Shown here: positions 30,621-51,715 of the stretch, piece by piece
Numbering within the stretch: position 1 is the stretch's first letter
How the letters are laid out: every line of letters starts with the position of its first letter
Assembly (NCBI GenBank): GCA_017479865.1
Contig: JAFVBS010000012.1
Coordinates: 960 to 64,959 of the forward strand
Direction: 5' to 3'
DNA length: 64,000 nucleotides
DNA from: Clostridia bacterium
GTDB lineage: Bacteria > Bacillota > Clostridia > TANB77 > CAG-508
Notes under the pieces: model-generated
Database searches by the model: none
What the model saw: only the letters and a program-made list of their open reading frames with translations
Told to the model about the DNA's origin: nothing
Translations under genes and position numbers: made by a program

Positions 30621-30834
30621 ATTATTATTCACTTTTATCACCTCAATATAATATATGTTTCAAAAGCTATATTATTATATATTCTTTTATAGCTGGAAAG
30701 GTGACAAATTAAAAATAATATTTTTTCAAATTATGTAAAACAATTTCCCTCAAAACTCCTTTTTATGACAAAAGTGAAAAATTTGTAACAAAAATTTAAT
30801 ATTGGGACATTAAAATACAGCTTCCGTAATAGTT

Positions 30835-30860
30835 TTTCCAAAATTCGACATTTTTGGAAA
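30835..30860. promoter_or_regulatory. 9 bp inverted repeat TTTCCAAAA-N8-TTTTGGAAA whose spacer contains TTCGACA (Spo0A-box complement)
   Basis: Lies 11 nt upstream of the -35 of the first adhesin operon. Confidence 0.35.
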
Positions 30861-30870
30861 GAACTATCCA

Positions 30871-30898
30871 TTGAAAAATACTGTAAAAATGCTAAAAT
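30871..30898 (+). promoter_or_regulatory. promoter of adhesin operon 1
   Basis: TTGAAA, 16 nt spacer, TAAAAT. Homologous to the promoter at 41525..41553. Confidence 0.5.
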
Positions 30899-30941
30899 TG
30901 ATATTATAGAATACTTATGTCTATGAAACAAAGGAGGTACT

Positions 30942-49500: not shown

Positions 49501-51626
49501 ATGCAAGAAAAGCTCAAGTTAATTCGTCAAGCATTTATGGAAAAAATGCACAATCAGACTTAGAAAAACAATACAACGGTTTATATATTAATGGCTTAAA
49601 GGAAAAGGAACTAGCTAGTGGTGAAGAGGCATATATTTTCTTAACCTTTAAAGTAAAAAGTGATGCAAATGGTCCAGTTATTCTGGATGGAGATGATAGT
49701 TTAAAAGAAAACTATGCAGAAATTAACGGATACCAAACTTACTATGCTAATGGAACTGTTTTACCAAATAAGGTAGAAAAGTCCCATAACGATGTAGCAG
49801 GAATTATTGATTATAACTCAAACCCAGGTAACTTGGTATTAAAAGACCTAGAAGGCGAAAAGTACGAAAAGAACTTTGAAAATGACACAGACCGTGCAAA
49901 GAAAATTAAAGTAACAGTCAAAGGAACCAGAAATATTAATGGTACCGTATGGGAAGATGAAAGAACTCAAACAGTATCTGGCTCAGTTATTGGTGACGGT
50001 ATTAGACAACAAAATGAAATTGGAGTCAATGGGGTTACTGTACAACTAGTTGAAAAATTGGCAGATAACAAAGAATATGTATGGCAAACAACTAAGACAA
50101 AAGATGGTGGAAAATATCAATTCTCCAACATCATTCCAGGAAATTACATTGTTAGATTTGTTTATGGCAATAACAAAGACACTGCTTTAACAGTAGCAAA
50201 TGGCGGGGCAAATGCCGTATCTTACAATGGTCAAGACTTTAAGTCTACCATATATCAAAAAGATATGAAGGCTAACCAAGAAATTGCAGGATACCAAGAG
50301 GAATATTACAATATTCAAGCAGCAGATAGTTACAAACAAAACTTATCAGATGCAAAAGATGTTTGGTCAAGAAGAACAGCAGTCAACAATTATAGCACAA
50401 ACAATGTAACAAACTATAAAGCAGAAGTACTAGCTTCTCCATATGCACAATCTATCAATGAAGCGCAAATCAAGGAATTAATGCAAAATACCAACATGGT
50501 AGCAGAAACAGCCATCATTGTATTCGAAGGAGAATATAACAGAACGAATACAGATGGAAGCAACACTGAGTCAAATGGGGATACACTTTATATAGTAAAC
50601 AACTCGGATGGCAAAAGTGATAACTCAAATGCTTATAATGGAAATTACACATTAAACAATGTAGACTTTGGATTAACCGAAAGACCAAAAGCACAACTTG
50701 AAATTAGCAAAAAGGTAGCAGGTGTAAAGTTAACCCATTCTGATGGTGTAGTAGCATTTGATACTACAAAAGCAGTACCAGATGTGTTATGGTTATCAGG
50801 AAAAGCATATAATTTAAGTGATTCCATGAGAAAAAATCAATATAAAGACTATTACCAAGAGAGTATTAAAGATGCAAAATACAATCGTTACTCATATCGT
50901 GAGGAAGTTAGCAAATTAATTGCATCACGCTATAAAGGTGGAAATAATGGATTAATTCAAATTACTAAAGATGAAGAATTAATGCATGGCGCAACTATTC
51001 AAATTACGTATGTTCTTACGATTAAAAATGTTGGTGAAACAGACTATACCGGTGAAGACTTTTATTATAAAGGGGTTGCCAATGGAAAGGTTGTAACAAC
51101 AGCAGCAAATCAAGTGCTTGACTATGTACCAAACAATTTACAATACAGAGGGGCAGAAAATCAAGGTTGGACCGTAGTGAATGTAAATGACTTAACCAAC
51201 AATGATGCAAACCAAGTATATAGCAGACTTGTCAATAATAGTTTAACAGAAACAATTAGCAAATTTAACACCATGTTAGTAACTAAAGATTTAGCAAAGG
51301 CATTAGAGCCAGGAAAAGAAACAGATAATAAAACTTTAGTATTAACAAAAGTCATTACACCAGAAAACGCAAACGATGATTTGACCTATGAAAACATTGC
51401 AGAAATTGTACAAACTTCTAATACAGTAGGTAGAAGAATGGCATATTCTATCGTAGGAAATCAAAATCCAACAGAAAATCCATCAGAAGTTGATAGTAGC
51501 CAGGCAGAACGAATTGTCATTTTACCACCAACAGGTGAACCATACCTATACCTAGGAATTGGTGCAATTGCAATCATCATCCTCATCGGTGGCGTAATTA
51601 TCATTAAGAAAAAGGTTATCAAATAA
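46590..51626 (+). CDS. paralogue of 36149..41317: thioester-domain adhesin (1678 aa) with a canonical LPPTG anchor
   Basis: QLYCIQKGG (TGT at 46881..46883) and RQVAIW (47157..47174). INGTVWEDERT..KDGGKYQFSNIIPGNYIVRF. LPPTG plus TM plus KKKVIK. Confidence 0.8.
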   Translation: MNQKTKTIGIALALAFVLILLISVMSAIMAKPAEMIEQTRISKEKLIANGSIAKGTITVKGAHDSKSFQNGRAFYYEYTGETSNKVYCPSINDIQLYCIQKGGRLKSTGNLVSDVEAKNGNTGSTRGSLPRAIYSNPYYVCNNKHEVLNAIGAYIVTAPSNFIASAKGTYDYGANSTTFEKGENISEEVRQVAIWLNPATNVGESWKASGAKFSYLDQSQQLSDEAEDYKTYEAELKENVANPIKETTEKEIKINVNVKEQYLIIGPYKLDYVSGIGNNVAFAGISNIQVKGYNEVNANKELKDVELLSYIQDGNEKAFNYFQPTQKEGYVDRSEQSYPVSGKEFFLKIKNPNQGVTAAAKKVNYISVFVEYGYMTATGTKCELVGNQKVAKAVQYDSRPIYSDGIRIGTKRYYRWTVSSSLTKPQKLIDAWGERKYYTVTVELVAKLKETTKPVEPSKPGRRQTYDITLSLGGTVWEDVLDTKMNQADGIKGENDKLIENVKVTLYECVLDKKGNVQYQDGKLISQVADLLSEDNRKQMTEEEIARRINPQFTDKNGYYQFDGLDPSNKYYVAFEYNGQVYMPTEYLVTGKKEDGTLVQQNSVQDMVTKLPNKEIWQVNSKVTENQTTRSNYNSQFKDIGSSPKNYQSSNSLNSGKLLKEDGKYYNETYTINELMGFELQADGTYKDDGVHLIDGFYALNKDGRIETTTKINEGIISKSIKEYIQKKAAYPNKEEMLAIYKNIAGNDSTLWKKLQYIEDCKISSYTGSPFKNSNVELYPVYNDFAIDSKIMTIPGKGSKKAIYKEQLHINSGLWRRQQVDLALRKDIYKAATKINGKTEIYNYNKRSDDEKYWQIELRLQDYNQYYGTNYNRELYIDDYKYRSANTNQSGKDLELYITYKITVRNNSQGILGKVTEVVDYYDNDYTYQPGLSWVMYQENNEDKQAQVTVKKDDYEKMMSTLCSPEDAIPYARKAQVNSSSIYGKNAQSDLEKQYNGLYINGLKEKELASGEEAYIFLTFKVKSDANGPVILDGDDSLKENYAEINGYQTYYANGTVLPNKVEKSHNDVAGIIDYNSNPGNLVLKDLEGEKYEKNFENDTDRAKKIKVTVKGTRNINGTVWEDERTQTVSGSVIGDGIRQQNEIGVNGVTVQLVEKLADNKEYVWQTTKTKDGGKYQFSNIIPGNYIVRFVYGNNKDTALTVANGGANAVSYNGQDFKSTIYQKDMKANQEIAGYQEEYYNIQAADSYKQNLSDAKDVWSRRTAVNNYSTNNVTNYKAEVLASPYAQSINEAQIKELMQNTNMVAETAIIVFEGEYNRTNTDGSNTESNGDTLYIVNNSDGKSDNSNAYNGNYTLNNVDFGLTERPKAQLEISKKVAGVKLTHSDGVVAFDTTKAVPDVLWLSGKAYNLSDSMRKNQYKDYYQESIKDAKYNRYSYREEVSKLIASRYKGGNNGLIQITKDEELMHGATIQITYVLTIKNVGETDYTGEDFYYKGVANGKVVTTAANQVLDYVPNNLQYRGAENQGWTVVNVNDLTNNDANQVYSRLVNNSLTETISKFNTMLVTKDLAKALEPGKETDNKTLVLTKVITPENANDDLTYENIAEIVQTSNTVGRRMAYSIVGNQNPTENPSEVDSSQAERIVILPPTGEPYLYLGIGAIAIIILIGGVIIIKKKVIK

Positions 51627-51650
51627 GTAAAGATAATTCAATAACACTAA

Positions 51651-51684
51651 AAATCTAGTAAATAAAAATTTACTAGATTTTTTA
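51651..51684 (+). terminator. intrinsic terminator of operon 2
   Basis: AAATCTAGTAAA..TTTACTAGATTT followed by TTTT. Same stem sequence as 41334..41369. Confidence 0.8.
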
Positions 51685-51715
51685 GTGAATTTGCGATAAC
51701 AATTCAATGCTTAAA

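Follow-up and report, generated by a model that had tools for sequence, protein, structure and literature searches.

How did one bacterial chromosome come to carry, side by side, two copies of an operon whose genes each encode a protein of about 1,700 residues, and what might these proteins do? The question arises from a 64,000-nucleotide (nt) stretch of Clostridia bacterium contig JAFVBS010000012.1 (hereafter, the window), in which an earlier reading of the letters, here called the original prediction, had seen a tandem duplication of a two-gene giant-adhesin operon. We find that the two units, A1–B1 and A2–B2, are ancient paralogous copies of one chromosomal operon, the ordinary outcome of an old gene duplication, and that the A–B family to which they belong is uncharacterised, adhesin-like and kin to the known TIE, CLIPPER and SdrD/Cna surface proteins. 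Taken as a whole, the account that we consider likely is that A–B is a two-gene surface-fibre operon that was duplicated long ago and is conserved across its clade, with both units intact in this genome and with a thioester-like head on protein B.

Two complete units in tandem

Each of the four giant genes of the original prediction corresponds to an intact forward-strand open reading frame (ORF), and the units lie head to tail as proposed, each running from promoter to terminator. Their homology is collinear over the full length: segments matched by blastn keep a constant offset of approximately 10.3–10.6 kb, and full-length alignments give 39.6% amino acid (aa) identity for A1 and A2 over 1752 columns and 36% for B1 and B2 over 1740 columns. 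The alignments thus show something other than a likeness limited to generic repeat domains, which had been named as the finding that would tell against two units; it is between A and B that the likeness is confined, to one SdrD-B-type domain. In both units B starts 15–19 nt past the stop of A, behind the predicted G-rich ribosome-binding site (RBS), in the context TAAATGAA(A/G)GG(G/A)GG..ATG, an arrangement that is consistent with co-transcription and close coupling. The spacer between the units measures 271 bp. The features of the locus are as follows.

28856..29470, + strand: minC (Pfam MinC_C, 4.6e-30), conserved upstream flank of the A–B locus
29579..30641, − strand: three short ORFs of 139, 133 and 52 aa in the interval from minC to A1
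30835..30860, no strand: candidate operator, a perfect palindrome read from the sequence, TTTCCAAAA-N8-TTTTGGAAA
30868..30898, + strand: unit 1 promoter, −35 TTGAAA at 30871–30876, extended −10 TGcTAAAAT ending at 30898
30942..36134, + strand: A1 (1730 aa), intact ORF, predicted secreted rod protein
36132..36148, + strand: A1 stop/B1 start junction with G-rich RBS; same junction in unit 2
36149..41317, + strand: B1 (1722 aa), intact ORF, putative thioester-domain-like head on a stalk
41332..41367, + strand: unit 1 terminator, a hairpin with a 16-bp stem and a T run behind it
41522..41553, + strand: unit 2 promoter, TTGAAA-17-TATAAT, with the AAAATGTCGTATAAT block found across the family
41589..46571, + strand: A2 (1660 aa), intact ORF, A1 paralogue with the same domain order
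46590..51626, + strand: B2 (1678 aa), intact ORF, B1 paralogue
51649..51682, + strand: unit 2 terminator hairpin, arms identical to those of the unit 1 hairpin
52029..54524, + strand: spoIIE (Pfam SpoIIE_N 6.1e-48, SpoIIE 1.5e-30), conserved downstream flank
54599..54635, + strand: hairpin downstream of spoIIE, the third with this type of stem, not within either unit

The two units are old paralogues

Over aligned codons, A1 and A2 share 42% of residues and 58% of nucleotides, and B1 and B2 share 42% and 55%. Divergence at more than 40% of nucleotides rules out an assembly artefact. The original prediction held parts of the C-terminal third of A to be nearly identical, with exact runs of more than 25 nt, and offered ongoing gene conversion or constraint on the anchoring module as the cause. 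The similarity proves to be lower: the best inter-unit DNA match has 74% identity across 940 bp (35109–36040 versus 45549–46480), protein identity is 60–65% in the C-terminal third of A and likewise in its last 300 residues, and a single exact run exceeds 25 nt (27 nt, at 35894/46334), the next longest being 20 nt.

Silent sites speak against gene conversion in the coding sequence. At identical residues, third-position identity is approximately 0.62–0.65 throughout A1/A2 and B1/B2, which in a genome of 30% GC indicates that synonymous sites are saturated, and it is not raised in the C-terminal third of A (0.60–0.70 versus 0.51–0.81 elsewhere). The A1–A2 identity in this third is close to the family median of 57–59%, several proteins from other species are closer (66–68%), and A2 ranks only 9th and 24th of the 69 relatives of A1 in the best-conserved third. 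As judged from these comparisons, the conserved C-terminal third reflects family-wide constraint and not gene conversion, so that the second cause originally offered is the one that holds. The membrane-proximal C-terminal modules are under strong purifying selection; the most variable parts are distal, namely the head of B and the CLIPPER repeats of A.

The phylogenetic placement of the units agrees with an old origin. Neighbour-joining trees were built for 71 A and 83 B proteins from alignments made with the fast setting of MAFFT, and both alignments and trees are rough. In these trees (L-numbers denote related loci from other genomes, and P-numbers family proteins), A1 and B1 group with L003, L009, the first unit of L034, L001 and L008, whereas A2 and B2 group with the spoIIE-proximal units of L031, L038, L039, L052, L053 and L042, in a clade that also holds the second A genes of L034 and L012. 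Each unit is therefore nearer to genes of other species than to the unit beside it, and the species nearest by SpoIIE (70–71% aa identity) mostly have two units too. Saturated silent sites and separate clades together imply an origin older than several genera, either as paralogues or by an early cassette gain. Of the proposed tandem duplication of an operon, the two collinear units stand, and a recent date does not.

Shared promoter and terminator elements

The promoters predicted at 30871 and 41525 are indeed the best sigma-70-like sites of the region, 40–70 nt upstream of A1 and A2. The unit 1 site (TTGAAA-16-TAAAAT) has 10 of 12 consensus matches and a TG before the −10 element, and the unit 2 site (TTGAAA-17-TATAAT) has 11 of 12. 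Both carry the block CCATTGAAAAA(T)ACTG(T/G)AAAAATG, at 30868 and 41522. The match between the two promoters is by itself borderline against shuffled sequences (score 36, shuffle maximum 36), and we regard the block as real because it is conserved across species: the core (CC)ATTGAAAAA....AAAATG(T/C)(C/T)(G/A)TA(T/A)AAT precedes A in approximately 60 species. Its presence in both units therefore points to a conserved strong promoter and not to recent copying, and the shared upstream region of the original prediction, although it exists, is no mark of this duplication. The promoters of relatives come close to the consensus, and most species have AGGAGG as their RBS.

Upstream of these promoters, further elements differ between the two clades. 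The unit 1 clade has a version of the promoter core of its own. In the window the palindrome TTTCCAAAA-N8-TTTTGGAAA, a candidate operator, lies approximately 10 nt upstream of the unit 1 −35 element, and its TTCGACA core and TTCCA/TGGAA arms are kept upstream of unit 1-clade promoters in L003, L009, L012 and L015. Unit 2-clade promoters have a conserved AAATTCACATAA box approximately 30 nt upstream of the −35 element, found upstream of the spoIIE-proximal A in L031, L034, L036, L038, L039, L041, L042, L052 and L053; the unit 2 promoter of the window does not have it. A sporulation-specific role, which the neighbouring spoIIE might bring to mind, was set aside, as the promoters are sigma-A-like and spoIIE is just the conserved flank.

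The terminators, too, were predicted correctly: after B1 and B2 lie hairpins, at 41332–41367 and 51649–51682, whose 15-nt arms are identical and which both lead into a T run. The same stem, AAAAATCTAGT(A/G)A..T(T/C)ACTAGATTTTT, occurs three times in a row, after B1, B2 and spoIIE, and the hairpin after spoIIE scores 54 against a shuffle mean of 20.6 (standard deviation 2.8). The stem is thus shared as proposed, but its presence after spoIIE, outside the units, deprives it of its value as a sign of unit duplication. Only eight perfect hairpins with a stem of at least 10 bp occur in the whole 64 kb, and identity between the three hairpins is limited to approximately 35 nt. Among the relatives, the terminator after B differs in every one, and 0 of 76 related loci have specific stems common to neighbouring hairpins, the sole repeat (in L060) being a trivial A-rich match. 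The shared hairpin is the only sign of recent sequence exchange at this locus; it is peculiar to this genome and involves a gene outside the units.

A scan of metagenomes for the terminator hairpin returned only ten unrelated marine contigs, which are chance AT-rich palindromes. A fourth, looser relative of the hairpin lies after carD, at approximately 59386–59420. The intergenic DNA directly after spoIIE (54523–54570) also holds short repeats that contain GGGAC(A/G), which recur downstream of B in L021, L027, L028, L029, L031, L049 and L053 and may be a dispersed intergenic repeat of the clade.

A fixed chromosomal site in uncultured gut Clostridia

Among GTDB species representatives (one genome per species), 361 relatives of B were confirmed by tblastn, all from metagenome-assembled genomes (MAGs) of uncultured gut Clostridia. 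Their sources include human, rabbit, mouse and others, and Clostridium sp. CAG:273, CAG:508 and CAG:567 are among them; one relative, L058, comes from a complete chromosome of 1.70 Mb (OZ006978.1). The record names of relatives (CAG:508, CAG:273) suggest the GTDB order TANB77, of which CAG-508 is the major family (PMC11680825). A protein annotated as ‘hypothetical’ in a Clostridia bacterium MAG matches B1 at 100% identity, and every source that names the family calls its members ‘hypothetical’ or ‘uncharacterized repeat protein’; an exact look-up of P0001, which is the B1 of the window, found nothing on record. Searches of a plasmid collection for B1 relatives and of a phage collection for A1 relatives found none.

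Classification of the ORFs of 77 loci revealed a fixed order of minC, small reverse ORF, A, B and spoIIE. Thirty-eight are complete single-unit loci, and 22, the window included, have at least two units. minC precedes an A–B unit in approximately 55 related loci, and at least one A–B unit is present in every retrieved related locus that shows both flanks. With the 133-aa ORF as marker, the small reverse ORFs are syntenic between minC and A in approximately 60 species, L001 carries homologues at the same place, and they are divergently oriented from unit 1; they are probably outside the operon. None of the three in the window has a Pfam or NCBIfam match, and the 139-aa ORF has a C-terminal hydrophobic segment. 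Between the units of two relatives lies an ORF of approximately 605 aa (L034, 8570–10405; L009, 16427–18238) that looks YcaO-like by sequence reading only, and L009 has a further 315-aa ORF there (18604–19551) that resembles, on the same footing, a PD-(D/E)XK (Rpn-type) nuclease.

Protein A is a predicted all-beta rod

In both copies, A consists of a signal peptide, a highly conserved mature N terminus (QNSKTNHxNVEFNSYFEG), an immunoglobulin (Ig)-like rod, CLIPPER/DUF11 and DUF7507 repeats, an SdrD_B module and a conserved last module. Pfam finds DUF11 (PF01345) at 42.3 bits in A1 and 74.5 bits in A2 (cut-off 24.6), SdrD_B at 45.3 and 51.9 bits, and in A2 also DUF7507; CLIPPER (DUF11) is an isopeptide-type stalk domain (PMC12617251). 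The AlphaFold2 model of A1 residues 32–960 (approximately 930 aa) is all beta, a chain of beta-sandwich domains with a predicted local distance difference test (pLDDT) score of 85. Foldseek matches this N-terminal part only to generic multi-Ig proteins at a TM-score of approximately 0.14, among them integrin alpha legs, macroglobulin domains and antigen I/II C-terminal domains, and Pfam searches of its pieces at relaxed thresholds gave nothing meaningful. From the domain matches and the model, A is best described as a probably secreted all-beta rod of Ig-like, CLIPPER/DUF11 and SdrD-B domains.

Protein B carries a probable thioester-type head

B begins with a hydrophobic segment, a predicted signal or anchor sequence, and a head of approximately 400–450 residues (about residues 60–500 in B1), followed by two SdrD_B-type and two CnaA-like modules. 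The SdrD_B matches of B1 and B2 score 36.5–59.7 bits and place isopeptide/ester-type Ig-like domains in the stalk; SpaA and CarboxypepD_reg matches are sub-threshold. Known thioester domains (TEDs) have a (Y/F/L)C-hydrophobic-hydrophilic motif, which contains the bond-forming Cys, and a TQxxΦW motif next to the thioester (PMC6194298). The B head has a counterpart of each of these two motifs. In TEDs the Gln that takes part in the bond sits on a strand near the C-terminal end of the domain. A YC(I/V)(E/Q) motif reads IYCVE in B1 (Cys81) and LYCIQ in B2, with the Cys kept in 76 of 83 family members and a Tyr or Phe before it in 77. A QxAΦW motif reads KQQAIW in B1 (Q178/A180/W182) and RQVAIW in B2, with the Thr of TEDs replaced by Lys or Arg; its Q is conserved in 79/83, its A in 68/83 and its W in 74/83. 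The head also has a near-invariant Arg (77/83), and approximately 10 residues before it stands a candidate bond-forming Gln (PQDAVVI in B1, PQKLIDA in B2), found in at least 53/83 members in a part of the alignment that wobbles.

The predicted structure points tentatively to the same group of proteins. With an AlphaFold model of the B1 head as query, the sole Foldseek match in the PDB at E ≤0.001 is 6fwv_A, the TIE protein of Bacillus anthracis (E 6.5e-5, probability 0.99). Sequence searches return far less: B heads matched nothing meaningful in Pfam at relaxed thresholds, none of the four proteins matched a PDB chain, and 1.84 billion cluster representatives, searched with a profile built from aligned heads, yielded no more than 141 proteins. 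Motifs and modelled fold together suggest, with somewhat better than even confidence on our part, that the B head is a divergent thioester domain. The B1 head also contains a Cys/His-rich insert, HTHHYRCSGCKAAGKGADGKTKYTCPGHTRRCHDCKG (residues ~410–450; window ~37380–37500). Similar inserts occur in P0003 and P0004, and B2 has none; the B1 insert may form a metal- or disulfide-stabilised knob.

The C termini resemble cell-surface anchors. Both A and B end in a tripartite arrangement of motif, hydrophobic helix and basic residues: VVTGK, a transmembrane (TM) segment and a basic tail in A1 and A2 (family motif x(V/A)TG), ILPPFG, a TM segment and a KKK tail in B1, and LPPTG, a TM segment and KKK in B2. 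The (I/V)LPPFG form is the family norm, being present in 76 of 83 B proteins. In an NCBIfam scan, the LPXTG_anchor model (TIGR01167) scored 14.4 bits on the LPPTG of B2, below its cut-off of 15.9, and did not match the tails of B1 (LPPFG), A1 or A2 (VVTGK).

A surface-fibre model and its alternatives

The gene structure, domain content, conservation and evolutionary pattern described above can be drawn together with the predicted export, anchoring, thioester chemistry and adhesion into the following model. Each unit has its own near-consensus sigma-A promoter, ends at an intrinsic terminator and would be transcribed as a single message. A and B would be made together and exported, and their C termini would be held at the cell surface. 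The conserved membrane-proximal modules would then form the base, and the variable distal parts would point outward. To judge from its motifs and fold, the head of B could capture amine-bearing ligands on the host, in mucus or on other cells by covalent reaction of a Cys–Gln thioester. Two diverged units would give each cell two different heads.

Several observations weigh against this account. An accessory adhesin would not usually be kept in nearly every species, at a fixed place in the core genome and behind a very strong promoter, and this combination could mean a structural envelope role. The identical terminator stems are not accounted for by an old duplication, and duplication in situ and cassette gain by recombination are indistinguishable here. 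The position of the bond-forming Gln is a candidate only, the model of the B1 head is only moderate (pLDDT 68), and its TM-score to 6fwv_A is low (0.23). The Pfam TED model matched neither the B heads nor the full proteins at E ≤5, the head profile had 0 matches among PDB chains, and ten distant members of the head family neither matched a TED nor provided a bridge to Pfam TED. Finally, LPPFG does not contain the Thr after which sortases cleave, and no sortase domain was found among the scanned ORFs of the 64-kb window or the Pfam-annotated neighbours in L001 and L003–L006, which leaves the mode of anchoring uncertain.

Three other explanations deserve comparison, two of them concerning how the pair of units arose. 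A recent tandem duplication of the operon, in which N-terminal parts diverged fast while gene conversion kept the C-terminal third, the promoter and the terminator alike, would suit the collinear units with their same gene order, the identical terminator arms, the common promoter block and the one 27-nt exact run in the C-terminal third of A. We regard it as highly improbable, because silent sites are saturated and no more alike in that third, each copy has closer relatives elsewhere, C-terminal identity is at the family median, the promoter block occurs across the family, spoIIE too is followed by the hairpin, and two-unit loci are shared with the nearest species. A more serious contender, if still an unlikely one, is that the second unit was gained or swapped as a cassette. 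Homologous recombination with DNA of a related species would then have used as homology arms either the flanks on the minC and spoIIE sides or the C-terminal modules, all of which are conserved. The A and B trees depart from the SpoIIE tree: L001 and L008 join L069 and L071 by SpoIIE but the unit 1 clade by A and B. First units are moreover more heterogeneous than spoIIE-proximal units, and the inter-unit spacer takes foreign genes in relatives (the YcaO-like ORF of L034 and L009). However, differential loss of old paralogues would yield the same incongruence, the neighbour-joining trees are rough and were compared without a species tree, the spoIIE-proximal unit tracks its SpoIIE neighbours well, and no mobile-element genes lie beside the units in the window.

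The remaining alternative concerns function: A and B may be part of an envelope structure, such as a fibrous or S-layer-like coat, or may mediate cohesion between bacterial cells, and so not be host adhesins at all. Such a role would explain why almost every species of the clade retains at least one pair, at a set place in the core genome and with a very strong promoter, and it sits well with the near-consensus promoters, the AGGAGG RBS of most species and an A protein without a recognisable binding head. There is a precedent as well, in that class II thioester adhesins are known to act in contact between bacteria during conjugation (PMC8092201). We nevertheless judge a structural or cohesive role unlikely, to the same degree as the cassette gain, since Pfam finds no S-layer-homology or cell-wall-binding domains, a variable distal head on an isopeptide-type stalk with a C-terminal anchor is the layout of a fibrillar adhesin (PMC12617251), and strong distal variation is expected of tips exposed to ligands or immunity.

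The old-duplicated surface-fibre operon can also be cast in a more far-reaching form, which we put forward only tentatively and as a package: A–B would be a surface fibre of two components, inherited vertically and defining its clade, an uncultured gut order that is probably TANB77. In this form the B heads would constitute an unrecognised, highly divergent family of thioester-type heads, and the non-canonical anchor signals, (I/V)LPPFG on B and x(V/A)TG on A, would call for a dedicated transpeptidase or for plain membrane anchoring. A single site in the chromosome, between minC and spoIIE, would hold a repertoire of heads in the form of one or two cassettes, and possibly more, that are kept or exchanged, and the hairpin common to B1, B2 and spoIIE would be a functional or mobile element of the site.

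The surrounding chromosome

The rest of the window is ordinary chromosome. It contains prfA, sugar-nucleotide and glycosyltransferase genes, pcrA, mecA, radC and a PBP2-like gene, together with minC, spoIIE, rubrerythrin, feoB, dut and carD. Scans with Rfam and for tRNA genes gave no hits in the window, and no mobile-element genes flank the units within it. Some local oddities were seen. minD and minE do not come after minC (28856–30400), where small reverse ORFs and then the A–B locus stand instead. ORFs at 24044–26505 occupy the place expected for mreB, mreC and mreD; identifications of MreC and MreD come from the relatives L001 and L003 alone. The PBP2-like transpeptidase gene (26688–28800) is present as two overlapping ORFs of 546 and 162 aa, is split likewise in L003 (559 and 100 aa) and is intact in L001 (695 aa). 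A large serine recombinase at 14738–16346 is broken into two ORFs (272 and 274 aa) beside the stretch where GC is lowest in the window (23%; 12000–14000), and may belong to a decayed mobile element.

Relation to known surface proteins and significance

As the original prediction had it, the proteins are built like surface adhesins of Gram-positive bacteria. The closest resemblance of B is to the class II TIE proteins (BaTIE, PDB 6FWV; SaTIE; EfmTIE86), with which it shares a (Y/F)C and QxxΦW head, a CnaB/SdrD-B-type stalk and a tripartite anchor. It differs from them in a head of approximately 400–450 aa with large inserts that TED sequence models do not see, an LPPFG anchor in place of LPXTG, a length three times greater and constant pairing with a second giant gene. 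Like the CLIPPER fibrillar adhesins (Acinetobacter silvestris B9T28_05395, PDB 9IFR), A has PF01345 and DUF7507 above threshold in a beta-sandwich stalk; unlike them, it has no identified adhesive head, a C-terminal helix anchor in a Gram-positive-type envelope and a thioester-type operon partner. Both proteins recall Staphylococcus MSCRAMM-type proteins (SdrD B repeats, Cna) in their SdrD_B matches (45–60 bits), prealbumin-like fold and cell-wall-anchored layout, but lack the MSCRAMM A-region ligand-binding domain, Ser-Asp repeats and a canonical LPXTG (borderline in B2).

At the level of the operon, A–B resembles sortase-assembled pilus operons as a multi-gene surface operon of isopeptide-domain proteins with one thioester head, as in Cpa at the pilus tip, although it has no sortase gene in the window or inspected neighbours and its subunits are approximately 1,700 aa instead of 300–900 aa. 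The Tad-type pilus cluster of TANB77 (PMC11680825) has likewise been reported as a conserved surface structure, probably of the same uncultured gut order, and is made of unrelated proteins (Tad machinery with pilins of 143–236 aa). That study used an 80% similarity criterion, which would miss the far more divergent A–B family. The family is set apart by its head sequence family, its LPPFG/VxTG tails, obligatory pairing, fixed site and size.

A–B occupies approximately 10–20 kb in apparently small genomes, of which the one complete chromosome measures 1.7 Mb. If the B heads are true thioester domains, they would allow covalent attachment to host or partner cells, and LPPFG would raise the question of anchoring for the clade as a whole. 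A–B would then be a candidate colonisation determinant and a strain- or species-level marker in a clade which, should it prove to be TANB77, has a reported association with immunotherapy response (PMC11680825).

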